A DNA stretch of 64,000 nucleotides from Patescibacteria group bacterium UBA7435 (GCA_002477545.1 DLQJ01000016.1:24528-88527); one strand, 5' to 3'; positions 215 through 63,811 are shown, counted from the stretch's first letter. Notes: generated from the sequence alone by a model not told the origin. Translations and numbers: made by a program.

Positions 215-298
215 GCGCGTGTGGCGGAATTGGTAGACGCGCTAGTTTTAGGCACTAGTGAGGCAACTCGTGGAGGTTCAAGTCCTCTCGCGCGCACA
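215..298 (+). tRNA. tRNA-Leu (anticodon TAG), long variable arm
   Basis: Cloverleaf read by eye: acceptor GCGCGTG/CGCGCGC, anticodon loop TTTAGGC, T-arm GGAGGTTCAAGTCCTCT, long variable arm; no encoded CCA. Confidence 0.85.
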
Positions 299-305
299 AA
301 CGGCA

Positions 306-343
306 GACCCAGAAAGCGATGCTTTCTGGGTCTTTGCCGTTTT
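306..343 (+). terminator. Rho-independent terminator after tRNA-Leu
   Basis: Perfect 12-bp stem gacccagaaagc/gctttctgggtc with gat loop, followed by tttgccgtttt. Confidence 0.6.
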
Positions 344-628
344 GACGTGTGAGAGGACTTGAACGGTTCGTTTCGGGGTCCCCCTGGGGTAAACGAACCG
401 CGACCAACGTTCTTATGAACGAAGTGAATTAGATAAGTGGGTCAAGTCCGATAAATATGCTTCTCAATTCTAAAATGTGGGAGTCGCGCCTTACGGGCCG
501 CAGTAGACCTTTTGGTTATATTGATTCGCTCCGCTCTCAATCTACCTCAAAAGCTTTTCGACTCCCACCCAGGAGAAAATAATAAAAGCCTAAAACTCCA
601 AGTATTCGTTTTAGGCTTTCTTATTCTG

Positions 629-701
629 AGTCCTGGGTGGGAGTCGAACCCACGCGTGTCGGTTTTGCAAACCGATGCGTTAACCACTTCGCCACCAGGA
701 C
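629..701 (-). tRNA. tRNA-Cys (anticodon GCA)
   Basis: Minus-strand cloverleaf: acceptor GTCCTGG/CCAGGAC, anticodon stem TCGGT/ACCGA with loop TTGCAAA, T-arm GTGGGTTCGACTCCCAC. Confidence 0.8.
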
Positions 702-769
702 TTTGGTTGCAACACTTTACCATCTATAGCTTACCAAACCAAGTAATTATGTTATCATGGCGCGCATAT

Positions 770-851
770 GCCGGGATGGTGGAATTGGTAGACACGCAGC
801 ACTTAAACTGCTGTGAGGCAACTCGTGCGGGTTCAAGTCCCGCTCCCGGCA
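770..851 (+). tRNA. tRNA-Leu (anticodon TAA)
   Basis: Acceptor GCCGGGA/TCCCGGC, anticodon loop CTTAAAC, long variable arm, T-arm GCGGGTTCAAGTCCCGC. Confidence 0.85.
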
Positions 852-914
852 CCTAAACAAAGCACGCCTCAGGGCGTGTTTTGTTGTGTCAGGAACGGGA
901 TTTAAAAATGAAGA

Positions 915-1937
915 CTACCTCAACTTCATCCGATGCTTCTTAAACGAATCCGGCTTATTCTTAAAATTATTTTGAGTCAGTACCTTTCTCATCTTCGCGG
1001 GCAACCGATCAAACGTCATACACTTGTACGAGCAGTACCCACTCTTCTTTTCGACACATCCCTCACACCCTAAGAAAAGGATATGACACGCTTGGTTCTT
1101 GCAGTGATGATGGGTATCACTTTTATTTTTTGCACATAAGTGACACGTTGAAATAATTTCTTCTCCAATACGTTCTCCCATACGTTCATCAAACACAAAG
1201 TTCTTTCCTTTAAATTTATTCTCAAGGCCCTCTTGCTCTACCTGGTGCTTGTAGTCGATGATCCCTCCCTTAAGGTGTCGTACGTCAGTAAAACCATTAT
1301 GTTTCAACCAAGCACTTGCCTTCTCACAGCGGATACCCCCTGTGCAATACAATGCCACTTTCTTATTCTTGTGAATTTTCAATGTCTCTGGTGTCACCGC
1401 AAGCTCCTCTCTGAAGGTATCAACATCAGGGCAAACAGCATTCTCAAAGTGGCCAATTTCACTCTCATACCCATTACGCATATCAATCACCACAGCCTCC
1501 GGATCCTCTACATACTCATTCATCTCTTTAGCAGTAAGGTACGCTCCTGTATCAGTGACATCAAATGAATCGTCGTCCAAGCCATCAGCCACAATCTTTC
1601 CTTTTACGCGCACCACAAGTTTATAAAACGACGATGCTGACCCTTCCTCAACAGCAATTTTGTATGGGACACCCGCAAACTCCTTCTTTGACTTCATAAA
1701 TGCATCAAACTGATCCCAGTGTTTCTTAGGAACACTCATCTGTGCGTTAATTCCCTCGTGGGCAACATAAATACGACCAAGACATCCTAAACTACCGAAG
1801 CGTTCTAAAAGCTCATTACGAAGCTTCTTAGGCTCAGCAATCTGCACATATTTATAAAACGACAGAGTAACGCGTTCAATACCATCTTTGGCAATTTCCG
1901 CTTTTTTCTCTGCACGAGGTCGTAAATCCTTTTTCAT
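915..1937 (-). CDS. trhO: Rhodanese-domain tRNA U34 hydroxylase TrhO/YceA-like protein with C-terminal Cys-rich zinc ribbon
   Basis: 340-aa ORF; rhodanese active-site region CTGGIRCEKAS; UPF0176-like N-terminus; C-terminal CxxC/HHHC cluster. Confidence 0.7.
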   Translation of the reverse strand: MKKDLRPRAEKKAEIAKDGIERVTLSFYKYVQIAEPKKLRNELLERFGSLGCLGRIYVAHEGINAQMSVPKKHWDQFDAFMKSKKEFAGVPYKIAVEEGSASSFYKLVVRVKGKIVADGLDDDSFDVTDTGAYLTAKEMNEYVEDPEAVVIDMRNGYESEIGHFENAVCPDVDTFREELAVTPETLKIHKNKKVALYCTGGIRCEKASAWLKHNGFTDVRHLKGGIIDYKHQVEQEGLENKFKGKNFVFDERMGERIGEEIISTCHLCAKNKSDTHHHCKNQACHILFLGCEGCVEKKSGYCSYKCMTFDRLPAKMRKVLTQNNFKNKPDSFKKHRMKLR

Positions 1938-1992
1938 ACCTAATTGCCATGCATCATACAGAAACAGTGCGGATTATTCAATCATTTCAATC

Positions 1993-2322
1993 TTACGGAG
2001 CAACTACTGCACCACAACTCACACTAGGAATACCAATGCCAAACGTACCTGCTGCAATACTCAAAAGTGCCATAGCCGAAAGCATTACCAACATTCCAAT
2101 AACACCATAGAGAAGATGCTGTCTGCCAACTTCGCGAGCTGACTCATTATTTGCATTTTTTACATACTCAAACGCACCATACAGAAAGTACAGAAACGCT
2201 AGTGCCATCAATAGTGTAATGAGAGGAAAAAGGATGGCTTCATTAATTCTATTTACAAAACATTGTGCAGCTATTTGTGCATCAGTTGCCTGTGCATGCG
2301 CAGTGTGTATGAGACTAAACAT
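1993..2322 (-). CDS. Pilin-like small membrane protein, paralog 1 of 4 (CPR T4SS-pilin/TrbC-like family)
   Basis: Two hydrophobic helices flank the motif FLYGAFEYVKNANNESAREVGRQ shared with the ORFs at 4894, 5353 and 5603; start chosen at the internal Met (MFSL...). Confidence 0.45.
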   Translation of the reverse strand: MFSLIHTAHAQATDAQIAAQCFVNRINEAILFPLITLLMALAFLYFLYGAFEYVKNANNESAREVGRQHLLYGVIGMLVMLSAMALLSIAAGTFGIGIPSVSCGAVVAP

Positions 2323-2460
2323 AGCTCTATTATACACACCCTTTACACCCACAACGGGTGTTTTCCGCGGAAAACACCCGTTGTGGACTTCTATCAGACA
2401 CTCAAATATCATAATATGGCTATTAATAGACCTTTACCCCTAAAATAACAACCTTTTTCA

Positions 2461-2489
2461 TTGACTTTTAGCTTATTTTGTGCTATTAT
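2461..2489 (+). promoter_or_regulatory. Putative sigma70 promoter TTGACT-17-TATTAT for the 2625 operon
   Basis: Near-consensus -35 and -10 hexamers with 17-nt spacer; AAGGAG RBS 8 nt before the ATG at 2625. Confidence 0.4.
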
Positions 2490-2624
2490 AGTAAGTGGAG
2501 TAGCGTAATGCATCTTCCCCTTTTGGTTTGCATGTGCAGACAAAAACGGAGAGGCGCATCCGCGCTATATATAAATTGTGATTAGTTAACACTGCTCACA
2601 CAGAACCTTGAAAAGGAGCATACT

Positions 2625-4100
2625 ATGTTCTCTAGAACCAAAAAGGCCTTCGCGGCCACCAAGAAACGTTTTACCTCTTTGCGTAAACGTTTTAAAAGAA
2701 CCCCTCGTACTGAGGAAACTTATTACAGGAGGGATCTTACGCGGGTTTGTTTATTTTTGCTTTTTGTCTTCATTACATACACAAAGGTACCAAACCCATT
2801 CTCTGAAATGATCTTCGGTGGTGTCGCTCTGTTGGTATTGCTACCGTTCATTCTTCCGCTGATTCCCGGCTTTGTAAATGCACTTGCAAACAAGCCTAAT
2901 GTTAAGCGGATCAAAACTAATGAGTCCATTGCTGAGCTAAACACGCAAGATGAAGACGAAATTGAACCAATCGTGACAGTTCGAGTTAATACCACAGATG
3001 ACTACAAACCTCACACTCTTGCATTTTTTACCTTCCTTGAACCAGGACGAGCAAAAATAATTGAGCGTGGCGATCGATTCATCCGCATACTTATGCGTTA
3101 TGACGATCATTCGTTTCGTGGAGAGACATCGCTTCGAACAAAAACGAGTACTGGCAAAGATCTTGCAAAAGGGCCTATTGCGCGCAATGAAGCTGCCTTC
3201 TGGGATGTTATAAAAACACCTAAAGGTGAACTTGATACACATCCTATATCAACTTCGTTACGCAGAGGTCATTTCGATCTTGTATGGCTTTGGTCTCGCT
3301 ACGTGTACCGGATCACTGGTGCTGTTTTTACCGGCATACCGCCGTTTCAAACAGTACGAACTTACAAGCTTTCTCGTCTTCTGAAAGTTCCTGCCGAAAA
3401 AGGTGGGTACGACTTTGAAGTAGAGACTGACTACAGTGATCATTTTCGGGCTTCATATTTCCAGTTCTTTGTTCGGATTGATGAGGCAGAAACCCAAGAC
3501 CAAGCGCCTTTGGATATTGACTTTGCCGCGACACTTCGTGTGCAAAATCCATACCAAACAGCGTATGAAGCAGCCGATTGGTCTACCCAATTTACAACTG
3601 CTTTGACTAATGTGATTCTCAATCACATTCGAGGTCTCACCCGTAGTGAGGTTACTGCTGAAGATACTAGTGATGCTAGTTATCATGCCAAAAGGCTTTC
3701 GTCAGCTGGCATGAGAATCAATAAGGGCGATAAAACAAGTCACATCATTGCAATTCCAAAATTTGGACTTAAAATGGATAAACTTGAAACGCTTAGTATC
3801 AAAGTAGCAGACAAGGAGCTTAAGGAAGCTCTTGCCGGGATCGCTAAATCAGAAGCTCGTGCAACTGCACGAGTAAATGAAGGTGACGCAGAGGCTGCAG
3901 CACAAGGAGCACTCATGAAGAAAGCAGCAACTCACGGTCGCTTTGGCGAGCTTGTAGTTACTACCGAACGTGATGTCCGTACAGCAAAAGCTGCGGGCGT
4001 AAACGGTGGTAGCGTAATTGTAAACACAGGAGGACAGCAAGGAGGGGTAGATTCCAAAACTGCATTTCTCCGGGAAAGTCTTGAAAGGATAAACCCATGA
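2625..4100 (+). CDS. Membrane protein with SPFH/band-7 (flotillin-like) domain (tentative)
   Basis: 491 aa with N-terminal TM segment; LEPGRAKIIERGDRFIRIL resembles the start of the SPFH core; C-terminal Ala/Glu-rich coiled region (EARATARVNEGDAEAAAQGA) typical of flotillin-like proteins; strong RBS. Confidence 0.4.
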   Translation: MFSRTKKAFAATKKRFTSLRKRFKRTPRTEETYYRRDLTRVCLFLLFVFITYTKVPNPFSEMIFGGVALLVLLPFILPLIPGFVNALANKPNVKRIKTNESIAELNTQDEDEIEPIVTVRVNTTDDYKPHTLAFFTFLEPGRAKIIERGDRFIRILMRYDDHSFRGETSLRTKTSTGKDLAKGPIARNEAAFWDVIKTPKGELDTHPISTSLRRGHFDLVWLWSRYVYRITGAVFTGIPPFQTVRTYKLSRLLKVPAEKGGYDFEVETDYSDHFRASYFQFFVRIDEAETQDQAPLDIDFAATLRVQNPYQTAYEAADWSTQFTTALTNVILNHIRGLTRSEVTAEDTSDASYHAKRLSSAGMRINKGDKTSHIIAIPKFGLKMDKLETLSIKVADKELKEALAGIAKSEARATARVNEGDAEAAAQGALMKKAATHGRFGELVVTTERDVRTAKAAGVNGGSVIVNTGGQQGGVDSKTAFLRESLERINP

Positions 4101-4843
4101 CAGGAGTAATAGTTGGATTTGTAGTCCTGGGAATTATAGCGTTGATTGTTATACTTTTCGGGACTCTCGTCTTTACCTCCGCCCTTGCGGGCGGAGGCAT
4201 TACTGCAAGATTACCCAACATGGGTAACTTCACAAAGCCTTTTCTCTTACTTCTTGGAATTGGATTAGCTTTGTATTTTGGGCCTACGGTTTTTTCAAGC
4301 CTTAGCTCTAAAAATTGGATGCCTGATATCTCACTCTGGTTAATTATATCTCTGCTGGTAACAGCGGGACTTATCGCAGTTGGATTTCTTGGTCTCTACA
4401 GAGAACCAGAGATCAGCAATGCTGCAATGTGGTTTGTCAGGATTTTGATTGCCATCTTTACACTTATTTCCATCAGCTGGTTCCTTTGGGGATCAGAAGC
4501 TGTGGAAAATCGGTACGAAGATATACAAGATTGGAAATGGGAAAACTCATGGTTTTCTTCAAACCCAACGCCAGGAACCACTGAAGTCACTCAAGTGGTC
4601 TACATGGGTCGTGCAAACGGTTCTGTATATACTTTAAGTGATGAATACTGGACCATGTTTGACTGGCCTGACAACGGCTACTGCGTTCATGTTCCAGGTA
4701 ATACTGCAGGAGTTCTTGACCGTGCTAACGACGGTCGAGATGAATACTCCCTACTTAGTCGTGTTGCTGGGAAGAAAGTACGCGTGTATACGCTTGCTCC
4801 TGGTGAATCGATTGGGGACTATACATGTCCCAAGCTAACATGA
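4097..4843 (+). CDS. Polytopic membrane protein with C-terminal soluble domain (possible NfeD-like partner of the SPFH protein)
   Basis: 248 aa with 4-5 N-terminal TM helices; ATGA stop/start overlap with the upstream ORF indicates translational coupling. Confidence 0.4.
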   Translation: MTGVIVGFVVLGIIALIVILFGTLVFTSALAGGGITARLPNMGNFTKPFLLLLGIGLALYFGPTVFSSLSSKNWMPDISLWLIISLLVTAGLIAVGFLGLYREPEISNAAMWFVRILIAIFTLISISWFLWGSEAVENRYEDIQDWKWENSWFSSNPTPGTTEVTQVVYMGRANGSVYTLSDEYWTMFDWPDNGYCVHVPGNTAGVLDRANDGRDEYSLLSRVAGKKVRVYTLAPGESIGDYTCPKLT

Positions 4844-4847
4844 AAAA

Positions 4848-4879
4848 AGGCCCCGCAAAATGCGGGGCCTTTCTTATTT
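4848..4879. terminator. Bidirectional rho-independent terminator
   Basis: aggccccgcaaaatgcggggcct hairpin flanked by A-run and T-run, between convergent genes. Confidence 0.6.
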
Positions 4880-4893
4880 CAAAAATACTGAAA

Positions 4894-5262: not shown

Positions 5263-5352
5263 ACTCTGCATTATCATAAATTTATAAGTTGATGTGTCTA
5301 TTATACAAGATTTTTACGTATATTAAATGTATATACTCCATTGTGTGCATAT

Positions 5353-5601: not shown

Positions 5602-5602
5602 A

Positions 5603-8128: not shown

Positions 8129-8255
8129 AAAAATCTCTAGAAATTGCGTGAGATGTGCGGAAGACAAGAAAAAAGACCCGAGCGGGACACGTGTCCAGCG
8201 AGGGTCTTTTTATCGCAGTCTGACAACGCAGATTGCGTGATTTCTAGAGATTTTT
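8129..8255. repeat. MITE-like intergenic repeat, copy A: 16-bp terminal inverted repeats enclosing a terminator-like hairpin; abuts the gyrA stop codon
   Basis: TIRs aaaaatctctagaaat / atttctagagattttt; internal gaagacaagaaaaaaga motif plus ggacacgtgtcc hairpin and T-run; ~75% identical to the copy at 57601-57730. Confidence 0.55.
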
Positions 8256-10728
8256 AGAAATAGACGATTGAAGCGATGGAATCACCCGCTCGCATCTTCA
8301 TCACCTTCACCCCTTGCGTATCTCGTCCAAGCGTCGGAACATCCTTAAGCGGTAGCTTAATCACCTGTCCTTTCTTGCTCATTACCACCAACTCTCCTTC
8401 TTTTCGATCTTCCAGAGTAAGCGCTGCTGCTCCAACTACTTTTCCAGTCTTAGAGGTTACCTTTGCAGTCTTAATACCACTTCCTCCACGATTTTGTGTT
8501 TTGTATTCTTTTGCGTGAGTAGTTTTACCAAATCCATTTTCCATTACCACCAAGATCTCTCGGTCGGCCTCTCCCTTCTTAAGCACATCAGCAGAAACGA
8601 TATGGTCATCCTTCTTCATCTTCATACCCGTAACTCCAGCTGCAGTACGCCCCATTTGACGCACATCTTCTTCTTTAAAGCGGATTGCTTGTCCATTGTA
8701 TGTAATAAGAGACACCTCATCACCTGCACCAACAAATGATGCCGCAATTAACGAGTCTTCTGATTTAAGCGTAATCGCAATAAGTCCGCTTCGTCGTACG
8801 TCCTTAAATGCTGACGCATCAGATTTCTTGATCACACCGTTTTTTGTCACCATCATCAAGCTCCAGTCTCCCTCCCAATCTTCTTTACGTACCGGAAGTA
8901 CCGAAGTAACACGCTCATCAGCGGTCATAGATAAGAAGTTCATGATTGACTTACCTTTAGTTGCTCGACGTCCTTCAGGAATCTCATACATCTTGCATTG
9001 GTATACCTTTCCTTTATCAGTAAAGAACAGAAGGTCACTGTGTGCTGAAGTAGTTAGAAGTGTTGTTACCACATCTTCTTCTTTGGTATTAAGATCAACC
9101 ACACCAACACCACCACGTTTCTGTGTTTTGTATTCTGATGGGTTGGTTCGCTTTACGTATCCACCCTGCGTAAGCACCAATACACTTTCTTCGTCGGCGA
9201 TAAGATCTTCAGGACTCATGTTTTTCACACCTCCCTTTACGATCTTAGTACGTCGATCGTCACCAAACTTCTGTGCAGCCTCAGCAAGCTCGGACTTCAC
9301 AATCCCCATCATCTTCTTCTTGTTCTTAAGAATTGCTTCGAGTTCTTTAATGAGCGTTTGCAGAATTGCTAACTCATCCTCAATCTTCTTACGCTCAAGT
9401 CCTGCGAGCTTCTGCAATCGCATATCAAGAATCGCCTGTGCTTGCACCTCAGAGAATTTAAATTCCTTCATCAATGCAGCGTGTGCTGTTGGCACATCCT
9501 TTGCTGCTCGAATAAGTTTAATGATCTTATCAATATGATCCAGTGCCTTCTTCAGACCAAGCAAGATATGCTCTCGATCTTGTGCCTTAGTCAGGTCGTA
9601 TTGTGTACGACGCTTGATTACATCAGCTCGATGCTTAATGTACTCCTCAAGAATCACCTTTAATGAGAGTGTCTGTGGCACACCGTTAACCAACGCCACC
9701 ATGTTGTAATGGAACGTATCTTCAAGTTGTGTGTGCTTGTATAGTTTATTTAAAACAGTCTGTGGATTTCCAGTAGAACGTAGGTCAATTACTACACGAA
9801 TATCTGAAGTAGACTCATCTCGCATTTCTTTAATACCCTCAATCTTCTTATCGCGCACAAGGTTTGCAATCTTCTCCTGCATGTCCGCCTTGTTCACACG
9901 GAATGGGATAGAGGTAATGATGATTGAGAAGTTTCCTTTCTTGTCTTCTACTATCTCAGCTTCACCACGCACTACCACTCCTCCTTTACCGTTAGCATAT
10001 GCGTGTGCGATTGCCTTTTTATCAAATGCTACTCCTCCCATTGGGAAGTCAGGGCCTTGCACAAACTTAAGTAGATCATTAGTCGATGCTTCAGGGTTGT
10101 CAATCAAATGTTCAACAGCTGCTGCAATTTCTCGCAGGTTGTGAGGAGGGATATTTGTTGCCATTCCTACGGCAATACCAAGAGTACCCATCAAAAGAAG
10201 GTTCGGTAGTCCGGCAGGAAGTACCTCTGGCTCTTTCTTCGTCCCGTCAAAGTTTGGACGCCAGTTTACCGTGTCTTTTTCTAGATCACGTAACATCTCT
10301 TCAGAGATCTTCGACATTTTTGCTTCAGTATATCGATATGCAGCAGCTGAGTCACCATCAATAGAACCAAAGTTTCCTTGTCCGATAACCATTGGGTACC
10401 GAGTGGTAAACTCCTGAGCAAGCTTTACCATTGATTCGTACACAGCTGTGTCCCCATGCGGATGGAAACTACCAAGAACGTCCCCAACTACCGTTGCAGA
10501 CTTTCGAAATTTTGCAGTTGAGGTTAGACCATTAAGACGCATCGAGTATAAAATACGTCGGTGCACAGGCTTCAGACCATCACGAACATCAGGCAGAGCC
10601 CGCGATGTAATCACTGACATTGCGTAATCAAGATATGCTGTACGCATCTCATCAGCGATATTCTGAGGAATGATCCCACGAATGTTTTCAGGTGCTGCGC
10701 TGTCTTCCTTAATAGTCTTTTTCGGCAT
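8254..10728 (-). CDS. gyrA: DNA gyrase subunit A
   Basis: 824 aa; N-terminal GyrA pattern ([26 protein letters not shown]) and C-terminal beta-pinwheel repeats. Confidence 0.95.
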
Positions 10729-10786: not shown

Positions 10787-11185
10787 CTACTGTGTTGAAG
10801 TACTCGTCTTCTTTGTGGTGGTTCCAATAAGGACCGTACGTTTTTGTACAGTTGGTTTCTCGACCTCAGGGGCTTCTGATGTGGTTGACGCTACAAAGAA
10901 AGTATTAAAGTCCATGCCGTCAACAATGATTTCTTCTGGGACTTCCGTTTCTTTCTCAGCCTCAGGGGTAGAAATTAAATTACGAAGATCTGAAAAGGTT
11001 CGAGAAACACCGCCTTGCAATTCAACTTCTGGCGTTGCTACCGTATTAAAAAATGCAAGTTTGGCGGGTACACTCACTAACCAGAAAAGTATTATCACCG
11101 AGGTAAACAAAGCTGCCGTCCAGAACGCATATCTGTTTCGGACTTCTTTGGGTGCTTTTCGCAATGCTTCAATTTTTTTTAACAT
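10787..11185 (-). CDS. Hypothetical membrane-anchored protein
   Basis: 132-aa ORF with one TM helix and Thr/Glu-rich tail; no recognisable domain. Confidence 0.4.
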   Translation of the reverse strand: MLKKIEALRKAPKEVRNRYAFWTAALFTSVIILFWLVSVPAKLAFFNTVATPEVELQGGVSRTFSDLRNLISTPEAEKETEVPEEIIVDGMDFNTFFVASTTSEAPEVEKPTVQKRTVLIGTTTKKTSTSTQ

Positions 11186-11384
11186 GAATGAATGAATAAA
11201 GAAGTGTAACGACTATTATGAATTGCCCTAATTTTTAAGAAGACCTCAGTCGACTATAAAAATGGAAATACCCTTGGGGTGCACGTCCCGATTTTTTTCT
11301 CCCCTGAGAAAATCGCTGGACGAAGAAACTCTCAAGTATCACCTAACTTTAAATAGAGATCCTCAGTTACATCATCTTTTCTTT

Positions 11385-12005
11385 TTACGACTTCAACACA
11401 TGAATCTCACCGCTCATCACTGCGACATCCTTCTTCTTAAGTGTCAGTTTATCTTCTGGCTTTCCGTTAGAACTCCCTTCTTCTTTAAGAAAGGCCTCGA
11501 GTGCTGCTTTTTCGTAATGCATTGGGATAATACACTTCGCCTCAAGTTTTGTTGCAAGCTTCGAAGCTTGTGGAACCTCAAGCACATCACCTCCACCAAT
11601 AGGAACAAAGAGAATATCAATATCTCCTAATTCCCCAAGAATCTTTGGGTCAATCTCATGATCGCTTAATGCACCAAGGAACACAATATTCATACCTTCA
11701 AGTGTCACCTGATAGATTGTGTTGTATCGCTCTACTTTATCGTAGGTGGTTTTCACTCCATATCCTCGACCTGTTACGTCACCAATTTCATATTCTCCAG
11801 GGCCGTCAACCACAAATGGTTGCTTATTACCGTGTGCAACTTGATCTGCTCCATTAAAATCAGCGTGCTGCATTGAAATAAACGCAACGTCAGAACCAAA
11901 CTTAACTGCTGATAACTTCGATTTCTTCGAAATAGGGTCAAATGCAAGCGTTGTGTCACCAAATGACACCTTAAAGCACTGCCCACCGTGATGTGTAATT
12001 ACCAT
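11385..12005 (-). CDS. MBL-fold metal-dependent hydrolase (UPF0173-like)
   Basis: MVITHHGGQCFKV N-terminus and metallo-beta-lactamase-like His/Asp pattern; start moved to an internal ATG because the ORF-track start is a TTG. Confidence 0.6.
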   Translation of the reverse strand: MVITHHGGQCFKVSFGDTTLAFDPISKKSKLSAVKFGSDVAFISMQHADFNGADQVAHGNKQPFVVDGPGEYEIGDVTGRGYGVKTTYDKVERYNTIYQVTLEGMNIVFLGALSDHEIDPKILGELGDIDILFVPIGGGDVLEVPQASKLATKLEAKCIIPMHYEKAALEAFLKEEGSSNGKPEDKLTLKKKDVAVMSGEIHVLKS

Positions 12006-14332: not shown

Positions 14333-14390
14333 AAATGTGTAAGGGTAGTCCTTTCACATCATGATGTGAAAGGACTACCCTTACACATTT
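14333..14390. repeat. Perfect 58-bp palindrome (29-bp arms, no spacer) in the pth/lepB divergent intergenic region
   Basis: aaatgtgtaagggtagtcctttcacatca|tgatgtgaaaggactacccttacacattt, followed on + by acgctttttt and a second small hairpin ttttgctttgaagcaaaa. Confidence 0.8.
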
Positions 14391-22932: not shown

Positions 22933-22941
22933 CACAGGAAA

Positions 22942-22983
22942 GATAACAAAACACTACTTCTTAAGAAGTAGTGTTTTGTTATC
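22942..22983 (+). terminator. Perfect 42-bp palindrome/terminator hairpin immediately 3' of tRNA-Glu
   Basis: gataacaaaacactacttctt|aagaagtagtgttttgttatc; a second hairpin gaagctgaactgcttcagcttc follows. Confidence 0.6.
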
Positions 22984-23169
22984 TTAGAAGCTGAACTGCT
23001 TCAGCTTCGGCCTGTGTGATAAGCGCAGACATATTTTTATTATTCATAATATAAAAACAGTCGAGCTGGGGTCGAGAACACTTGGTAGATTCTGAACATA
23101 GTGAAAGAATATACTTAGTGATTTGTGACCATATACAACTCCACAAACCAATTATGGTATTCTTTCCCC

Positions 23170-38698: not shown

Positions 38699-39099
38699 AA
38701 ATTTTACAAATAAAATCCGCCTCAGAGGGCGGATTTTAAATAGAATGGGAGTTTGTTAACAAATACTTAAAAGACGCCTTACAGTGCGGATTTAAGCGTA
38801 CAGGATGTGAAGCTGCTCCAAGTTTGGATTGTGTGGGTGAGTTTCATTGAGTTTATTATACTTTGTGGTGGGTTGATGTCTAGTGGGTTATTCACGGGGC
38901 GGGCTCGTCCTGACGGTCACAAATTCGCTTACGCTCATAAGTAACTACGGGCTCGGTCACGAATCACTAAGTATAATTTCTACTTCGTAAAAATTCTACT
39001 AAGTGTTCGCTACCCCGGCTCATCAGTCGTGCTCGCTTCGCTGTGCGCAACATGGTTCCGCCTTTCAAGCCCGCACGTAACTGGCCTGAGCCAGTTACT

Positions 39100-39163
39100 C
39101 CCCAAGCACCACATATACAAAAGACCACCCTAGGGTGGTCTTTTGTATATGTGGTGCTTGGGG
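39100..39163. repeat. 64-bp near-perfect palindrome whose right arm is the 3' acceptor end (incl. CCA) of tRNA-Phe
   Basis: ccccaagcaccacatatacaaaagaccaccc|ta|gggtggtcttttgtatatgtggtgcttgggg; the inner part is a T-run terminator for the tRNA. Confidence 0.75.
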
Positions 39164-39227
39164 GCGGGCTTGAACCGCCGACCCTTCGAGCTTCAATCGA
39201 ATGCTCTACCAACTGAGCTACCCAAGC
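39152..39227 (-). tRNA. tRNA-Phe (anticodon GAA), CCA encoded
   Basis: GCTTGGGTAGCTCAGTTGGTAGAGCA..., anticodon loop TTGAAGC, T-arm GGCGGTTCAAGCCCGCC, 3' CCCAAGCACCA. Confidence 0.85.
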
Positions 39228-55679: not shown

Positions 55680-55724
55680 ATTTAGATTATATCATTGTTA
55701 ACTACCTGACCAGAGGTCTCTCTC

Positions 55725-55788
55725 GTTACACGAGCAGTATAGGTTGTCGATATTTCTTGAGAAATATCAGGCAACCTTTTCGAGCCCT
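55725..55788. repeat. Small repeat family copy 1 (ttaca-N-cagta-aggttgtc-[hairpin]-aggcaaccttttcgagccct), downstream of tRNA-Gln
   Basis: 20/20 identity of the 3' block with 63590-63609; the hairpin arms differ but stay complementary (gatatttc/gaaatatc vs acgattttac/gtaaaatcgt). Confidence 0.55.
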
Positions 55789-55867
55789 GACGAAACAGTC
55801 TCCCAGACTGTTTCTGTCGCGTAGCACTAAAGTAAAAACACTCCTTGCGGAGTGTTTTTACTAAGTG

Positions 55868-55938
55868 CTACCCGACCAGGGCTCGAACCTGGATTGACTG
55901 CACCAAAAACAGTAGTCCTACCATTAGACGATCGGGTA
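55868..55938 (-). tRNA. tRNA-Gln (anticodon TTG)
   Basis: U1-A72 acceptor TACCCGA/TCGGGTA, 3-bp D-stem, anticodon loop TTTTGGT, T-arm CCAGGTTCGAGCCCTGG. Confidence 0.8.
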
Positions 55939-57600: not shown

Positions 57601-57730
57601 ATCTAAGTAAGAGAATTGTGTGAGACGCAAGGAAGACAAGAAAAAAGAGCCGAGCCGTACTTAACGTACGGTGAGGCCCTTTTTCTCGTAGTCTAACGAA
57701 GTAGATTGCGTGACTCTGTTACTTAGAGAT
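57601..57730. repeat. MITE-like intergenic repeat, copy B, abutting the pyrG stop codon
   Basis: TIRs atctaagtaagag / ctctgttacttagagat; shares gaagacaagaaaaaaga and gattgcgtga blocks with copy A; internal hairpin ccgtacttaacgtacgg plus T-run. Confidence 0.55.
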
Positions 57731-57733
57731 GAT

Positions 57734-59395
57734 TTATTTGCTTTCGTAACTTGCACGGATGAAAGCTGTGAATAAAGGATGAGGATCCAACGGCCGTGCC
57801 TGCAATTCTGGATGATACTGCACTCCTACAAAAAATGGATGAACTTCTGTTGGTAGCTCCATGGTTTCCATAAGACGTCCGTCTGGTGACTTCCCTGAAA
57901 AGATAAGTCCCTCATTTTCAAGCTCCATGATGTATGCAGGGTTCACTTCATACCGGTGTCGGTGTCGTTCAAGAATATCTGTTTGTTTGTATGCCCTTGC
58001 AACTACTGAACCCTTTTGCAAAACCGCAGGGTACTGCCCAAGACGCATAGAACCTCCCATATCTCCCTTTGCGATTTTCTCTTTCTGTTCATCCATCACG
58101 CCCACAATAAGATTCGCTGCTTTGGGGTTAATTTCTTCGGTACTGGCATCCTTCTTTTTTACTACATTTTGTGCAAATTCAAGCACTGCCAATTGCATAC
58201 CGTAACAAATACCAAAATATGGAATTCGATTTTTTCGCACATACTCGATTACTTTAAGTTTTCCATCAACGCCCGTCTTACCGAACCCTCCAGGAACCAA
58301 GACACCGTCATATTTCTTAAGCTCTTTAAGTTTCTTACTGTCGGCAAAATCGTGTGACGATAAGTATGTAATGTTTGGCTTGAGTCCTAACTTGTATGAT
58401 GAATACTTAATTGCCTCAAGCACTGAAATATATACGTCAGAAAGCACAAAATCTCCTGAACTGAAATACTTACCGATTACCGCGATCTCTACAGTATCCT
58501 TCGTATTTTTAGACTTTGACACAAATCGTTTCCATTCTGAAAGGTCAGATTTTTTAGAACATGAGAGATCAAGCATTTCACACAAACGATCTGAAAGACG
58601 ATCTTTTTCAAGATTTAAAGGAATGTCGTAGATGCTTTCTACATCAGGTGCAGATATGACGTCTTCTGCATGCACATTACAAAACGTTGCGATTTTTTCT
58701 TTACGTTTCTGGTCTACACCAACTGGTGAGCGAGCGATGATAATATTTGCAAAAACTCCTGCGCTATTGAGCATACGTACAGCAGTTTGGGTTGGTTTTG
58801 TTTTCATCTCACCAATACTTCCAGGCACCGGCAGGTAACTAACCATAACCACACCTATATCCTGAGGGTTTTTGGTCTTCATCATACGTATTGCTTCCAA
58901 AAAGAGTACGTTCTGGTATTCGCCGACTGTCCCACCTACTTCAATAAGTACAACGTCCGCACCTGCACCTTCTCCTGCTTTTTGTATACGGGAGATTACC
59001 TCAAGTGGAATATCTGGAACAACCTCTACATTTTTACCCTTGTATCCAAGATTACGCTCTTTTGCGATTACGGCTTGATATACACTCCCTGTGGTCATGT
59101 AATTAATGCCTGGAATATCAATATTTAAAAATCGTTCATAGTTCCCCATGTCTTGATCTGTTTCAAGACCGTCTTTAAGCACAAAACATTCACCATGTTC
59201 AGTAGGGTTCATGGTCCCCGCATCCACATTTACATACGGGTCAATTTTTACTGCGGTAACAGAAAGTCCACGTCCTTGTAGGATTTTTGCGATCGATGAC
59301 GACGCTACTCCCTTTCCAACTCCACTCATTACTCCACCGACGACGAAGATGTATTTTGTGTTCTTCGTCTTCTTTGTCTGTGCTTTCTTAGGCAT
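57734..59395 (-). CDS. pyrG: CTP synthase
   Basis: N-terminal synthetase domain (VVGGVMSGVGKG) and C-terminal GATase (GICYGMQ, His/Glu). Confidence 0.95.
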   Translation of the reverse strand: MPKKAQTKKTKNTKYIFVVGGVMSGVGKGVASSSIAKILQGRGLSVTAVKIDPYVNVDAGTMNPTEHGECFVLKDGLETDQDMGNYERFLNIDIPGINYMTTGSVYQAVIAKERNLGYKGKNVEVVPDIPLEVISRIQKAGEGAGADVVLIEVGGTVGEYQNVLFLEAIRMMKTKNPQDIGVVMVSYLPVPGSIGEMKTKPTQTAVRMLNSAGVFANIIIARSPVGVDQKRKEKIATFCNVHAEDVISAPDVESIYDIPLNLEKDRLSDRLCEMLDLSCSKKSDLSEWKRFVSKSKNTKDTVEIAVIGKYFSSGDFVLSDVYISVLEAIKYSSYKLGLKPNITYLSSHDFADSKKLKELKKYDGVLVPGGFGKTGVDGKLKVIEYVRKNRIPYFGICYGMQLAVLEFAQNVVKKKDASTEEINPKAANLIVGVMDEQKEKIAKGDMGGSMRLGQYPAVLQKGSVVARAYKQTDILERHRHRYEVNPAYIMELENEGLIFSGKSPDGRLMETMELPTEVHPFFVGVQYHPELQARPLDPHPLFTAFIRASYESK

Positions 59396-59413
59396 CGTAT
59401 TCTTATTTATCTA

Positions 59414-60334
59414 TTACACTCGTAGGTACCTTGCAACTGCCAATAAACTTGAGGTAACCCCCATAATAATTCCAGCTCCCACCAAAACCATAAATATGTA
59501 TGCGAAGTCTGAAACAAAGTAATTGAAAAGGTTGAACTGGAAGAACTGCTCAGTCTCTGGACCTATCCAGAGCACAATTGGATACAATATCAAAAGTGCG
59601 AGTACTCCAGCTGCAATACCATACATAATTCCTTGTAGCATAAATGGACCCCGGATAAACATATTACTTGCACCAACTAACCGCATTACTGAAATTTCCT
59701 CACGCGTTGTGTATACCGTTAATCGCACCGTATTAAAGGTGATAAGAATTGCTGCAGCGACCAAAACAATCATAATGGCAAACGTGGCATTCTCAACAGC
59801 CTGAATGATTGCGGTGAGCTTCTCAATTGCCTCTTGGTTCTTAAGGAAGTTTACCTCATCAATCAGAGGATTCTGTGGATCCTCAATTGCTTGTTGTTCG
59901 GAAAGAAACGATGCTATCCCCTCATACTGTGAGGTGTCTTTTGCTCGAATAGACAATGATGATCCCAATGGATTATCCCCCAGCTCTTCAAGACCTTGCA
60001 TGATTGTTTCATCGTTCTGATGACGTTCTGAAAAGGCTTCTAGTGCTGCTTCACGTGAGGTAAAGACTACCTCTTCAACATCAGGCAGTGCTTCAAGTGA
60101 GGTTTGCAATAGATCAACATCAGTCTGTTCAGCAGTGGTAACAAAATATACGTTGATATCTACCTTGTCCTGTACATTCTCAAGAGATACCGCCAAAAGC
60201 GTGTCGATCATCATTGTTGCGCCAATTACAAACAATGCAACTGACATTACGAAGATTGCAGAGAGTGACACAAACGCATTGCGCCAAAATCCTACAAAAC
60301 CTGCTCGAACTATTCGTTTAAATGCTATCCACAT
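59414..60334 (-). CDS. ftsX: Cell division permease-like protein FtsX
   Basis: 4 TM helices and large extracytoplasmic loop; adjacent to ftsE. Confidence 0.85.
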   Translation of the reverse strand: MWIAFKRIVRAGFVGFWRNAFVSLSAIFVMSVALFVIGATMMIDTLLAVSLENVQDKVDINVYFVTTAEQTDVDLLQTSLEALPDVEEVVFTSREAALEAFSERHQNDETIMQGLEELGDNPLGSSLSIRAKDTSQYEGIASFLSEQQAIEDPQNPLIDEVNFLKNQEAIEKLTAIIQAVENATFAIMIVLVAAAILITFNTVRLTVYTTREEISVMRLVGASNMFIRGPFMLQGIMYGIAAGVLALLILYPIVLWIGPETEQFFQFNLFNYFVSDFAYIFMVLVGAGIIMGVTSSLLAVARYLRV

Positions 60335-60339
60335 AATAT

Positions 60340-61023
60340 TTATAATACATATTTACCTTCCGCATCGTCGCGTACGATACGCCCCTCGTCCATAGTAATC
60401 ACCCGACGACCCAACTCATCAATTACTCCCTTGTTGTGTGTAGTCATAATGACCGTTGTTCCAAGATCATTAATTTTGCGAAGGATCTGTACTACTTCAT
60501 ACGTCGCAATTGGATCTAAATTTCCCGTTGGCTCGTCCGCAATAATAATATCTGGCTGATTCACAATCGCACGTGCAATAGCAACTCGTTGTTTCTCTCC
60601 TCCAGAAAGCTCTCCAGGGAAATTCCAGATCTTATCCTCAAGGTCTACTAGTGCCAGTGCCTGCGGTACATTCTCAGCAATCTCATCATCATTGCGGCCA
60701 TTTGCCTCCATCGCGAACGCAATATTTTCGTAAGCAGTTTTATGCGGAAGGAGCTTAAAGTCTTGGAAGACTGTTCCGATCTTTCGTCGATACTTCGGAA
60801 GTTTTGTTCTCGGAATCTGATGGATATCAAGAGATTCAAAAAAGACCTGACCATCGGTTGGTCGATCTTCTGCAATAAGCATTTTTAGGAGTGTTGTTTT
60901 ACCTGCACCAGAATGACCAACAATAGAAACAAATTCTTTAGGAGCTACCTGAAAAGACACACTTTCCAGTGCTGTTCCTTGCCCTCCGTTGTAAGTCTTC
61001 GATACGTTATCGAAATAAATCAT
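60340..61023 (-). CDS. ftsE: Cell division ATP-binding protein FtsE
   Basis: Walker A GHSGAGKTT, signature LSGGEKQRVAIARA, Walker B IIIADEPTGNLD. Confidence 0.9.
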   Translation of the reverse strand: MIYFDNVSKTYNGGQGTALESVSFQVAPKEFVSIVGHSGAGKTTLLKMLIAEDRPTDGQVFFESLDIHQIPRTKLPKYRRKIGTVFQDFKLLPHKTAYENIAFAMEANGRNDDEIAENVPQALALVDLEDKIWNFPGELSGGEKQRVAIARAIVNQPDIIIADEPTGNLDPIATYEVVQILRKINDLGTTVIMTTHNKGVIDELGRRVITMDEGRIVRDDAEGKYVL

Positions 61024-61116
61024 AAGCTAACTTCACTATTATACTGCAATGCTCGTAATAGGCCAAAGACATACCGTGCATTGAGTGTATTACAACATAA
61101 AACCTGTGTCTGTCTT

Positions 61117-61989
61117 CTATAGTTCCGTTGCTGCATCGAGAAATAGCTGGATACCACCGCCCAACACCTCGTCGATCTTACTAGTCTCTGCATTAGTCCG
61201 ATGATCCTTCACCATTTGATACGGATGTAATACATACGATCGAATTTGTGACCCCCATTCAATCTTAACGGTTTTTTCAATAGAAAGACCTTTCATTTCT
61301 CGCTTATGCTGTGCGTCATTAAACGCAAATACCTTACCTGCAAGCAGCTTCATTCCCTTCTCTCTGTTTTGTTGCTGTGAACGTTCAGTTGAAACGTTTA
61401 CTGAGATATTTGTAGGGATATGTTTAATACGAACTGCTGTCTCGCGCTTGTTCACGTTCTGTCCCCCAGCCCCACCACTGCGCGCAAAGCTAATTTCCAA
61501 GTCATCTTCATTAAGGTCAACTTCCTTGAGATCATCTACTTGCGGAGACACTTCAACTAACACAAATGATGTCTGCCGCTTTCCGCTTGAGTTAAAGGGC
61601 GACATGCGTACCAGACGATGTACCCCTGATTCAGTTTGTAACGTTCCGTATGAACCCTTCCCGTGAATTTCAAAAGTGATATTCCGATATCCATTATGTT
61701 CATTGGCATGTGCATCAAGCGTCATAGCTACCCACCCCTGACTTTCAGCATACTTCTGATACATCTCTACAAGCATACGTGCAAAGTCTTCCGCGTCATC
61801 CCCTCCCGCACCTGCCACAACAGTGATCACTGCGTTATTACGATCATATTTCCCCTTACCATCTGCAGCATCCTTTAAATCTTGAAGCTCTTTAATCATC
61901 GCCTGCGCCTTCTGTGGATCATTCCAAAAATCTGCCTGCAGCATGGCAGCGTCGATTTCAGCGATGCGGTTTTGTATGTCCTTAGGCAT
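61117..61989 (-). CDS. prfB: Peptide chain release factor 2 (compact, single-frame, no programmed frameshift)
   Basis: SPF tripeptide (RMSPFNS) and GGQ ([11 protein letters not shown]); 290 aa in one frame. Confidence 0.8.
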
Positions 61990-61996
61990 TAAATAT

Positions 61997-62422
61997 TTAT
62001 CTTACAGTACCAAAATATACTTCTCCAGTCTTGAGTGCTTCTAAACCTTTCTTATCACCAACAATCAAAGGTTCAGGTAAATCACCGATGTCATACCAGC
62101 TCCAACCGTCAAACATTTCAGAATCTAACACCTGAGGCTCGCCGCTAACCCATTGTGCAGTAGCTTCAATATCAACATAATGTGAACCTTTCCAGTGCAG
62201 AGCGTTTAAAAAAGAAACTATTTGTACATTCTCGACAACCAAACCAGTTTCTTCAGTTACTTTTCTCTGAGCGCACTCCTCTAAAGTTTCTCCGAAAGCA
62301 AGATGTCCACCTGGGCCTGCATACTCAAATGCTCCATCTCCTTTTTTTCGCTTACCCAAAAGCACCTTGTCATCTTTTAAAATCAAAACCCCAATGACAA
62401 CCTCCGGATATTTTTTAGTCAT
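61997..62422 (-). CDS. NUDIX hydrolase
   Basis: Nudix box [26 protein letters not shown]. Confidence 0.75.
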
Positions 62423-62423
62423 A

Positions 62424-62846
62424 CTATATTTTCAAAAGATAAAAGTGTGTGTCTTTCTCAGTGTATCCACGTTTTTCATACATTCCTTGCACCGCTTCAC
62501 GGGAACATGTCAAAGCAATATCAGTACAACCCCATTCTCGAGCCTTCTCTTCCAGTGCATCCATAATCACTTTAAACAAACCTTGTCCACGCGCATCTGG
62601 ATGGACCACAATGTTATTAACATATCCAGTGATATTAACTGGATGAACTACCTTACTTATCAACCCCATTCCCAAAAGTCGATCGTCAATAACCACACCG
62701 AAGAAATACGTATGATCATCAAGCGCAGTCTCTTTAAAAAGTTCTGGATTAATATTCTCTGGCACACTCACTAGATGTTTTTGAGCTTCAATGCAATCAG
62801 TCAGGTACTGATCGATATTTTCAGATGTAAGTTGGATGGTTTTCAT
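62424..62846 (-). CDS. GNAT-family N-acetyltransferase
   Basis: Acetyl-CoA-binding motif VVHPDARGQGLFKVIM. Confidence 0.75.
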   Translation of the reverse strand: MKTIQLTSENIDQYLTDCIEAQKHLVSVPENINPELFKETALDDHTYFFGVVIDDRLLGMGLISKVVHPVNITGYVNNIVVHPDARGQGLFKVIMDALEEKAREWGCTDIALTCSREAVQGMYEKRGYTEKDTHFYLLKI

Positions 62847-62925
62847 ATGTTTATGAGTATACCAGTGTATATTTTGTTTTCAATTTTTTCATTCTCTGGT
62901 AGGATGTTGCAATCCAAGAAGATAC

Positions 62926-62998
62926 GCCATCTTAGCTCAGTTGGTAGAGCGCACCCATGGTAAGGGTGAGGTCCGCAGTTCAATTCTGCGAGATGGCT
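62926..62998 (+). tRNA. tRNA-Thr (anticodon GGT)
   Basis: GCCATCTTAGCTCAGTTGGTAGAGCG..., anticodon loop ATGGTAA, T-arm CGCAGTTCAATTCTGCG. Confidence 0.85.
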
Positions 62999-63372
62999 CA
63001 TAAAAACAAAAGTTCCCAAGGGGAGCTTTTTTTATGATCCATCTCAGAAAGTGCCTTAATGGCACTTTCGGCAGAATTGAAAAGCTTTTGTGAAATTTCT
63101 GGAGCTTGCGAACAGAAATCTCCAAAAGGTCTACTGCCCCTGTAAGGGGAAATTATGAAGAAGCTCTCAATTCCACGAGGAATAACTTAGTGATTCGTGG
63201 CCAATTCTGTGTACGGCCAAAGGGACTCGTCCCGTTTATCTAATTCGCTTTTGCTCATAAGAACACTGGACGCGGCTTGTCGACCCAGAGGGTCCCCGAC
63301 TACGCCGTTCGAGCCCCTTCGGCCTGGAGATACAAACAAAAACAACCCTAGCGGGTTGTTTTTGTGTATCTG

Positions 63373-63446
63373 CGCGGCCAAAGGGACTCGAACCCTCAAC
63401 CTCCCGCGTGACAGGCGGGTGCTCTAACCAATTGAGCTATGGCCGC
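63373..63446 (-). tRNA. tRNA-Asp (anticodon GTC)
   Basis: GCGGCCATAGCTCAATTGGTTAGAGCA..., anticodon loop CTGTCAC, discriminator G. Confidence 0.85.
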
Positions 63447-63542
63447 AGGCATAAAACCTGCAAACTTGCATAATCTCTACAAGTGGCAAGAGTATATAGT
63501 TTTTGTGGGGTTTTTGCAATACGTTGGGGGAGGAATTGAACA

Positions 63543-63609
63543 TTACATGTTCAGTACAGGTTGTCACGATTTTACTGAAGTAAAATCGTAGGCAACCTTT
63601 TCGAGCCCT
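63543..63609. repeat. Small repeat family copy 2, downstream of tRNA-Met
   Basis: See the copy at 55725-55788. Confidence 0.55.
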
Positions 63610-63679
63610 CCTGTAAGCCATCCCATGGCTTACCCCGTCGGCACAAACAAAAAACTCCCTCAGGGGAGCATTTTATTTG

Positions 63680-63753
63680 TGTCGACGGGAGGGCTCGAAC
63701 CTCCGACCTCAACTTTATGAGTGTTGCGCTCTAACCAACTGAGCTACGCCGAC
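63680..63753 (-). tRNA. tRNA-Met (anticodon CAT; elongator-type or possibly tRNA-Ile2)
   Basis: GTCGGCGTAGCTCAGTTGGTTAGAGCG..., anticodon loop CTCATAA, T-arm GGAGGTTCGAGCCCTCC; G1-C72 pair, so not an initiator. Confidence 0.75.
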
Positions 63754-63811
63754 ATTTGAATCTGTGAGCAACAGAGTACTATATTTACTTCGTAGAATCA
63801 ATTACTTTCTA

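Follow-up and report, generated by a model that had tools for sequence, protein, structure and literature searches.

Why should a tRNA gene be followed, on the opposite strand, by a copy of its own 3' end? The question is raised by a 64,000-nt stretch of Patescibacteria group bacterium UBA7435 (GCA_002477545.1, DLQJ01000016.1:24528-88527; hereafter the window). An initial annotation of the window described degenerate antisense copies of this kind downstream of eight of the 11 tRNA genes, usually split by a stable hairpin or separated from the tRNA by one. This observation is real and general. As to what the copies are, we see about an even chance that they are the inner arms of an undescribed family of miniature structured modules, which insert into tRNA genes and restore them. 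On this reading, the modules seem to be related to the genomic islands that target tRNA genes, as a form not described before that has no recombinase gene.

The window population belongs to marine Patescibacteria (candidate phyla radiation, CPR) and is represented by about 20 metagenome contigs with identical proteins. The closest genomes are metagenome-assembled genomes, mostly labelled Paceibacterota, Kaiserbacteria or Minisyncoccia; the few other labels are probably due to mis-binning. All window proteins checked are housekeeping (gyrA, ftsZ, ftsA, pth, tsaD and others), and the gene calls of the flanking stretches agree with this. ARAGORN and Rfam agreed on the 11 tRNA genes, whose ends are given as called by ARAGORN. 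Loci and contigs fetched from relatives and metagenomes are labelled L001-L114.

Antisense copies of tRNA ends

We refer to the tRNA segment from T54 to the 3' end as X, to its opposite-strand copy as S, and to the same copy read on the tRNA strand as S'. Copies were scored over 21 positions, comprising the T-loop and the 3' strand of the T-stem (12 nt) and the 3' strand of the acceptor stem (9 nt). The search covered up to 170 nt downstream of each gene and allowed an insert of up to 45 nt, and each flank was shuffled 500 times. Scores of 20/21 for Phe and Met, 19/21 for Gln and Thr, 18/21 for Cys and 16/21 for Leu-TAA all exceeded the shuffles at p<=0.002; Leu-TAG and Asp (16/21 each) did so at p=0.012 and p=0.010, respectively. 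The flanks of tRNA-Glu (13/21, p=0.57), Val (p=0.24) and Arg (p=0.93) were at shuffle background. The original list was thus correct for Leu-TAG, Cys, Phe, Gln, Thr, Asp and Met, with coordinates right to within a few bases (see the S arms listed below). Glu has to be removed from it as a copy bearer, and Leu-TAA, which carries a weak remnant (886-906), has to be added, so that the total is still eight of 11.

The eight copies lie 35-80 nt downstream of their tRNAs. When all 11 tRNA 3' ends were compared with all 11 flanks, every end scored best against its own flank (22-36 on the diagonal of the matrix, about 10-16 off it). Among the 208 tRNAs from all fetched loci, 35% had a copy of at least 11/12, compared with 1.4% when the sequence of another tRNA was used. 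Chance similarity and a generic T-loop motif are ruled out by the shuffles and these cross-tRNA controls. The shuffle control had been suggested together with the original observation, and so had a search of relatives; the copies recur in related loci and in many metagenomes.

Module anatomy and core types

The antisense copy is embedded in a non-coding module of 130-200 nt, oriented convergently with the tRNA gene. Read along the tRNA strand, the module comprises, in order, X, a bidirectional intrinsic terminator, S', a conserved two-hairpin core and a direct repeat of X (DR). The core consists, on the same strand, of a P3 hairpin, an AGTAC joiner and a P2 hairpin with a TTACA loop. All three copies of X (X, S and DR) end exactly at T54. 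Both kinds of hairpin seen earlier can be placed in this scheme. The one separating the tRNA from the copy is the intrinsic terminator, terminator-like on both strands, and a G+C-rich hairpin followed by a T-tract was found only at this position, between tRNA and S (for example 63655-63668, both strands). The one splitting the copy is P4, a hairpin of 20-30 nt that often interrupts S' at the T-stem/acceptor junction and is present in the Phe, Gln, Thr and Met copies.

In the most closely studied core, type I, the strand opposite the tRNA reads 5' arm (antisense of X), P2 (GAAnn-TTACA-nnTTC), AGTAC, P3, TTT, S, terminator, tRNA, P3 being AGGTTGYC ... GGCAACC around an inner stem that varies. 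Type III is related to type I but divergent, and type II is another core with the same arms, so the layout is common to several core families (types I/III and II). Within the window, the Gln flank resembles that of Met (68% identity over 139 nt), the Leu-TAG flank that of Asp and part of that of Phe, and the Cys flank that of Thr. In relatives sharing the TrhO-linked Leu/Cys/Lys/Leu tRNA cluster, the same module sequences recur, often several in series. The components found in the window are listed below; R1 denotes a covariance model of the type I core.

215-297, plus strand: tRNA-Leu(TAG); its part from T54 onward serves as X of the module at 304-452.
304-334: terminator hairpin between tRNA-Leu(TAG) and its module (inverted repeat I5).
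335-364, minus strand: S arm of Leu-TAG (T-loop, T-stem 3' strand, acceptor 3' strand), 25/30 identical; I5, 83%.
365-452, minus strand: type II core of the Leu-TAG module, with a hairpin at 365-399 and conserved GTTCTTATGA..GAATTAGATAAG at 409-441; 75% identical to 63223-63316.
442-452, minus strand: partial direct repeat of the T-loop in the Leu-TAG module.
476-554, plus strand: Cys module, with 5' arm/DR remnant 476-486, P2 with TTAC loop 486-501 and type III core 501-554; it matches 63074-63147 reversed, with a weak R1 match at 484-568.
555-575, plus strand: S arm of tRNA-Cys, TTTTCGACTCCCACCCAGGAG, an exact 18-nt copy as originally described, with no P4 insert; matrix score 36.
576-627: terminator common to the Cys module and tRNA-Cys.
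628-701, minus strand: tRNA-Cys(GCA).
770-906, plus strand: tRNA-Leu(TAA) 770-853, terminator 855-885 and degenerate S' remnant 886-906 (16/21), with no core.
38900-39063, plus strand: Phe module core, with a type II-like segment 38900-38945 and a hairpin 39019-39055; 38901-38956 is similar to 63223-63275.
39064-39111, plus strand: S arm of tRNA-Phe, including CCA and split by P4 at 39077-39098; 20/21.
39100-39163: perfect palindrome of 32+32 nt (I1, 100%), made of the acceptor part of S, the terminator and the tRNA-Phe 3' end.
39152-39227, minus strand: tRNA-Phe(GAA).
55702-55790, plus strand: Gln module, type I, with decayed 5' arm/DR 55702-55720, P2 55721-55735, joiner AGTAT and P3 55741-55777; R1 match of 72.1 bits at 55719-55790.
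55779-55827, plus strand: S arm of tRNA-Gln, split by P4 at 55792-55814; 19/21.
55828-55866: terminator common to the Gln module and tRNA-Gln.
55867-55938, minus strand: tRNA-Gln(TTG).
62926-63035, plus strand: tRNA-Thr(GGT) 62926-62999 and terminator 63002-63035.
63036-63179, minus strand: Thr module, type III, with S 63036-63081 (P4 63047-63069), core 63082-63136, P2 63137-63149 and decayed DR 63166-63179; R1 match of 32.6 bits at 63070-63152.
63213-63330, plus strand: Asp module, type II, with 5' arm/DR 63213-63229 (15/15 to the tRNA end, DR score 14/16), core 63230-63275, hairpin 63276-63306 and S 63307-63330.
63331-63446, minus strand: terminator 63331-63370 and tRNA-Asp(GTC) 63372-63446.
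63526-63611, plus strand: Met module, type I, with decayed 5' arm/DR 63526-63540, P2 GAACA-TTACA-TGTTC 63538-63552, joiner AGTAC and P3 63558-63598; R1 match of 78.4 bits at 63536-63611.
63600-63644, plus strand: S arm of tRNA-Met, split by P4 at 63612-63633; 20/21.
63645-63753, minus strand: bidirectional terminator 63645-63679 and tRNA-Met(CAT) 63679-63753.

Two further kinds of sequence were seen close to tRNA genes. A conserved stretch of about 150 nt, reading gtgYcYttatacaac..agctcgMac...ggctcaccgcccgcagc, lies between module terminator and tRNA in L098 (~1290-1450), L083 (~680-830) and L037 (~1700-1860), and also in L028 and L114; it matches no Rfam family, tRNA or tmRNA and is perhaps a further module type or an unknown RNA. 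On the 5' side of tRNA-Leu genes (L008 4700-4790; L011 11320-11430 and 12300-12520), direct and inverted copies of the tRNA 5' part, from the D-arm to the 5' end, are joined by P4-type hairpins (..TCTCCCAGA..), a mirror image of the architecture on the 3' side.

Distribution beyond the window

R1, used together with one pattern scan, detected 126 cores in 660 kb, and the pattern occurred in 40 further loci, giving 166 copies of one core type in CPR genomes and in metagenomes from marine, freshwater, sediment and sludge samples. A convergent tRNA was present within 400 nt (median 71 nt) for 84 of the 126 cores, a same-strand tRNA for none. The remaining 42, as examined, were mostly at contig ends, inner members of arrays, or next to tRNAs with group I introns missed by ARAGORN. 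At least 29 isoacceptors were represented among the first 84 modules and at least 30 tRNA species overall, and modules occupied about one third to two thirds of the tRNA genes examined.

The group I introns just mentioned lie in the anticodon region of tRNAs beside type I modules (L055 8889-9129, L081 702-939, L048, L094 ~11000-11420 and L064 ~1630-2170). They fit the 35/36 introns reported in Patescibacteria tRNA-Asp/Asn (bioRxiv 10.1101/2025.07.03.662931).

Literature searches found no description of these modules. With Rfam 15, only tRNAs passed the gathering thresholds in the window, and relaxing the cut-off to E<=10 for 62900-63800 brought up no credible match. Matches to T-box, ribozyme, group II fragment and YrlA models were sub-threshold noise, and these known RNA families were rejected. 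A phage or plasmid origin was likewise rejected: two type I patterns had no match in viral contigs, and 29 matches to a type II pattern were coincidences in coding sequences.

Which pairing is maintained

The core is conserved as structure. P2 was paired in 95.8% of tabulated cells, with changes on both sides at four of its five pairs. The P3a helix was swapped as a whole between subtypes (AGGTTG/CAACCT, ACCTTG/CAAGGT and CTTTTG/CAAAAG). P4 showed a compensatory pair, GTAAAC/GTTTAC versus GCAAAC/GTTTGC, between the tRNA-Ala(GGC) modules of L090 and L095, whose S/terminator regions are alignable. Of the two strands, the module strand gives the more stable fold in 89 of 114 cores, an advantage that stems from a single inherited T.G pair, conserved in 93 of 114 sequences. 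Otherwise there is no G.U bias, and either strand may be the active one.

The arms behave differently from one another. At positions where X and DR differ, S agreed with X at 81 and with DR at 4 when only the T-part was counted, which involves no alignment choice, and at 166 and 8, respectively, over the full length. In the window, the DRs of the Met, Gln and Thr modules have decayed while their S arms still score 19-20/21. Since S tracks X and not DR, S:X is the maintained relationship, and a closing helix between 5' arm and S was ruled out as the conserved pairing. Upkeep of S:X might be due either to selection or to hairpin-templated correction.

Signs of DNA insertion

If the modules arrived as DNA, traces of the event should be sought at their outer ends. 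The DR was identical to X (21/21) in 27 of 67 modules (40%) and decayed in the rest, although a number of the seemingly decayed DRs are in fact arms derived from other tRNAs following a rearrangement. The inner DR boundary falls at G53|T54 without exception. At the outer boundary, identity continues for 0-23 nt past the tRNA into its trailer, and through the whole unit in tandem copies, so that the repeat is 21 to more than 40 nt long. Selection on an RNA helix cannot explain identity in the trailer, which is a signature of DNA duplication.

The order of events can be read at L009. There, the live tRNA-Cys carries two compensatory stem changes and is followed by a new terminator, while the DR, 130 nt downstream, retains the ancestral Cys sequence and then the ancestral terminator. 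The DR is thus the old gene end, displaced, and the arriving unit consisted of X, terminator, S' and core. X and the new terminator keep the tRNA gene intact. Such restoration is known for islands: after splitting a tRNA gene, an island repairs it and leaves a displaced piece behind (PMC4383910; PMC9897764), and tRNA-gene fragments resulting from integration are common in prokaryotes (PMC9897764). In the modules, the same logic is compressed into about 150 bp with no integrase.

Modules have accumulated in series at some tRNA genes through repeated arrivals. At Cys, L007 combines types II, I and III; a pair of identical units is present in L010, and L083 and L114 also contain arrays; every array unit begins directly after the preceding terminator, so that terminators lie on both sides. 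Cargo of 0.5-1 kb with a small open reading frame (ORF), bounded by repeats, was found between module and tRNA in L056, L093, L071 and L035, the ORFs encoding unknown proteins or domains of unknown function (DUFs). One of the explanations originally offered for the copies, repeated attachment-site scars, is partly borne out by these data: there is a direct repeat of the tRNA end, a sharp G53|T54 boundary and serial arrays. The antisense copy itself is no scar, however, but the inner arm of a conserved module made of core, S and terminator.

Several pairs of loci bear on mobility. In L049, two type I cores (376-465 and 1265-1354) are 100% identical over about 73 nt and have different arms, at tRNA-Lys(CTT) and tRNA-Leu(TAG); this could reflect a recent copy to a new tRNA (retargeting) or gene conversion. 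L024 and L082 are 99.4-99.9% identical, yet a 185-nt insertion in L082 (~1505-1690, compared with L024 1260-1268) overwrites tRNA-Leu(TAG). The inserted cassette comprises a complete new tRNA-Leu(TAG) allele (acceptor GTGCGCG versus GTGGGCG), a promoter and a hairpin, and sits in the anticodon stem-loop of the resident gene, which is left as 5' and 3' fragments. Its junction motif GCCTTTTGT..GAAAACGAACAYT also occurs in L011 near 12150. The cassette is of a different type with the same logic of overwriting and restoring, and it shows that the process is active. Between L021 and L051, a segment with tRNA-Leu(TAG) and its module is inverted, with one breakpoint inside the module DR, and tRNA orientations vary among the syntenic clusters of relatives (L001, L007-L014).

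Enzyme and promoter searches

The flanking DNA covered amounts to about 0.9 Mb. A nearby recombinase was not found: Pfam scans of flanking genes and cargo ORFs, and the 25 most frequent families among the 148 ORFs neighbouring metagenomic copies, gave none save for one weak rve fragment. This fragment, a match to the DDE integrase core (E=1e-4, below the Pfam cut-off), lies in an ORF beside a module array in L086 (106-828). A zeta-toxin gene is located beside another array (L022 6928-7662).

Promoters were sought upstream of the 5' arm. Hexamers resembling a -10 box showed no positional or overall enrichment there (about 0.4 per 70 nt, compared with about 0.9 for tRNA genes), and a consensus promoter scan found no module-strand site directly upstream of the window modules scanned; the sole match on that strand precedes the Phe module by about 145 nt. 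At the Asp module, a weak promoter-like motif (63180-63203) lies some 10 nt before the 5' arm. This is the weaker copy of a promoter-like motif, TAGTAGAAATTATACTTAGTGAYTYGTG, that is repeated in the window at 99-131 (plus strand, 5' of tRNA-Leu(TAG)), 23096-23130 (plus strand, 5' of an EEP-family ORF), 38955-38989 (minus strand, in the Phe flank) and 63180-63203 (plus strand).

A model of module insertion and its alternatives

The mechanism that we consider would run as follows. A unit composed of X, terminator, S' and core would enter at the stem/loop junction G53|T54 and replace the gene end. As the modules encode no recombinase, the enzyme would be supplied in trans. The active form is probably single-stranded DNA. 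Pairing of S with X would create an end or attachment site resembling double-stranded DNA, with the terminator at the apex and P4 branching off the side, much as in integron attC sites, the attP of CTX phage or the ends of IS200/IS605; a folded single strand is favoured because conservation is limited to the hairpins and the match between S and X, and the modules encode no enzyme. S would then also decide the tRNA that a module suits. Genome rearrangements between tRNA loci would arise as side effects, as would terminators supplied ready-made to tRNA genes.

We can also imagine a stronger version, which we regard as rather unlikely, namely that the modules are a self-contained, nucleic-acid-programmed insertion system. 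In it, S and X paired in single-stranded DNA would be the attachment site and determine the target, a structure-specific enzyme acting in trans would cut at G53|T54, and retargeting to more than 30 tRNA species would proceed by copying a new target end into S and X. For overwrite cassettes of the L082 type, the cut would fall at the corresponding junction in the anticodon arm. The modules would then represent a new class of mobile element, confined to reduced CPR genomes, that lacks a recombinase, can be reprogrammed and restores the gene it enters.

A number of observations weigh against insertion by mobile modules. No integrase, transposase or HUH enzyme was present among the scanned proteins of the 64-kb window, no integrase was among the 25 most frequent Pfam families listed for the 148 neighbouring ORFs, and a crude HUH-motif screen of 857 ORFs was negative. 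Two type I patterns had zero copies in 2.9 million viral contigs. The window copies are only 68-75% identical (Gln versus Met 68%), unlike a recently active repeat family; near-identical copies within one locus set were exceptional (L049, L010, L043 and L083). Presence/absence polymorphism of type I-III modules was not observed, the approximately 20 contigs of the window population being identical at the loci checked. The evidence for strand rests on the one conserved T.G pair, and the conservation of P3a was in part forced by the metagenome pattern, which fixed parts of this helix; the sample is also biased towards type I. Cores beside decayed DRs score as well as young ones, which suggests selection in place and hence a possible host function. 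Finally, the model offers no account of how a module would gain a new tRNA specificity without killing the new target.

One alternative is that the modules encode a family of small RNAs (sRNAs) convergent to the tRNA, composed of 5' arm, P2, P3, S (with P4) and terminator. The closing helix would mimic the acceptor/T-arm minihelix, and the RNA would serve as a mimic or decoy of the tRNA or regulate it in antisense or anti-antisense fashion. The module strand indeed folds into a multi-branch structure followed by a terminator hairpin with a T-tract, its stems covary, it is the more stable strand in most cores and conserves the T.G wobble, the cores stay intact where the DR has decayed, and the Asp module has its promoter-like motif. 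Nevertheless, we consider sRNAs unlikely. The closing helix required for the mimicry is not maintained, as the 5' arm degenerates or even comes from a different tRNA and S keeps to the live one (81 versus 4); the G.U excess comes from one inherited pair only; and neither hexamer enrichment nor a consensus promoter directly upstream was found. Moreover, array units start straight after the previous terminator, the identity of the 5' arm reaches into the tRNA trailer as expected of DNA duplication, and there is no Rfam match. Alternatively, the copy might be a cis-acting feature of the tRNA transcription unit: in read-through transcripts, S' would pair with the 3' half of T-arm and acceptor, and the resulting duplex would single the transcript out to be cleaved or degraded, or would help termination and the insulation of the tRNA gene. 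Because S is kept matched to the live tRNA end and not to the DR, such a duplex could form, and it can be very long or even perfect, as in the 32+32 nt palindrome of Phe. Every module brings a terminator that works on both strands, and the context is purely housekeeping. On the other hand, S' lies beyond an apparently efficient terminator and would rarely be transcribed, three to four of the 11 tRNAs of the same genome do without it, and the S:X match could persist passively by hairpin-templated correction within the palindrome. The 74-nt covarying core, the direct repeat, the arrays, the cargo and the several core families would all be unaccounted for. For these reasons we hold a cis-acting role to be decidedly unlikely, and the lineage-specific terminator or 3'-processing design proposed in the initial annotation is unsupported as the main explanation.

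The least probable of the explanations is, in our view, that no dedicated element exists and that the modules are debris of integrase-borne islands, or of foreign-DNA recombination at tRNA genes, with template switching at terminator hairpins adding inverted copies and lengthening the palindromes. Fragments of tRNA genes left by integration are common in prokaryotes (PMC9897764), and other tRNA debris does occur at the same loci, namely the 5'-part copies and the whole-gene overwrite in L082. Perfect palindromes suggest ongoing hairpin-templated correction, and the identical cores with different arms in L049 could be a product of gene conversion. Still, in many environments and at 30 or more tRNA species, the 166 instances share a compact order, exact T54 boundaries and a conserved core with compensatory changes. 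Large islands eroded by random deletion would not all end up with one such layout, and no integrase remnants were found nearby.

Comparison with known systems

If the modules are mobile, they share most with the islands, prophages and integrative and conjugative elements that integrate into tRNA and tmRNA genes (Islander-type, with T-loop and anticodon-loop sublocations). Both target the 3' part of a tRNA gene, with the boundary at the T-loop, and carry a replacement end; both leave the displaced fragment as a direct repeat marking the far end and accrete in tandem at one tRNA. The L082 event in the anticodon stem-loop is related as well. However, the modules measure 130-200 bp instead of kilobases, have no integrase and usually no cargo, combine a conserved hairpin core with an inverted copy of the attachment segment, and occupy roughly one to two thirds of the tRNA genes examined, whereas islands occupy one or two.

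Folded attachment sites may provide another parallel; in the modules, S folds with X and bears the P4 branch. Integron attC sites and the attP(+) site of CTX phage, used by XerCD, are imperfect inverted repeats in which pairing and not sequence is conserved; they have unpaired or extrahelical stem features (to which P4 might correspond in the modules) and, like the modules, form arrays of short units, some with one small ORF. The module breakpoint is at G|TT, as is integron recombination. The modules differ in that they have no IntI, attI or Pc platform, and their arrays start at tRNA genes. Moreover, the module stem is a copy of the target tRNA with no R/L boxes identified, and a conserved non-palindromic core is present.

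Palindrome-associated elements of the IS200/IS605 family (PATEs) and REP/REPIN sequences, mobilised by Y1 HUH enzymes, resemble the modules in being small and non-coding with hairpins at both ends, and perhaps also in being strand-specific and in relying on an enzyme supplied in trans. Their subterminal hairpins are conserved as structures, as P2 and P3 are by covariation, and the modules are compatible with IS200/IS605-like insertion just 3' of a short motif (TYGAA, module strand) with no target duplication. Unlike in these systems, no Y1 transposase was seen in the DNA examined, the copies are diverged and not near-identical, the ends include target-derived sequence that differs in each copy, and only tRNA genes are occupied. 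Miniature inverted-repeat elements (MITEs) and cis-mobilizable elements (CIMEs) are also short, non-autonomous and flanked by repeats and can form tandem arrays with related elements, but the module arms are copies of the local tRNA and not family-constant terminal repeats, and target-site duplications of fixed length are lacking. Lastly, a hairpin between tRNA and S is standard for intrinsic bidirectional tRNA terminators on both strands; S, P4, core and direct repeat are not explained by a terminator.

Other repeated features of the window

A different module of about 100 nt occurs twice in the window (8142-8240 and 57614-57713, 77-83% identical) and contains a terminator-like hairpin between ATTGCGTGA flanks. 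Its copies sit just 3' of the gyrA ORF (8254-10728) and of a large ORF (57734-59395), which is apparently CTP synthase. Perfect palindromes are also present at 14333-14390 (29-nt arms) and at 22940-22985 (23-nt arms), the latter being the tRNA-Glu terminator.

Implications

If the modules insert as proposed, a large share of the tRNA genes of many CPR bacteria end in DNA that was brought by a tiny structured module. As the genomes concerned are about 1 Mb in size and mobile elements that can be recognised in them are very few, much of their dynamics would so far have been hidden in these modules, supplying tRNA terminators, seeding inversions and the reshuffling of tRNA clusters, and carrying small cargo genes. 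They would also confound the annotation of tRNAs and pseudo-tRNAs. Should the modules instead be expressed as RNAs, they would constitute a large new family of tRNA-matched RNAs. The puzzle is how an element of about 150 bp with no recombinase gene enters one phosphodiester bond in more than 30 tRNA genes and rebuilds each of them, and the answer could reveal a new structure-guided or sequence-guided DNA insertion activity.

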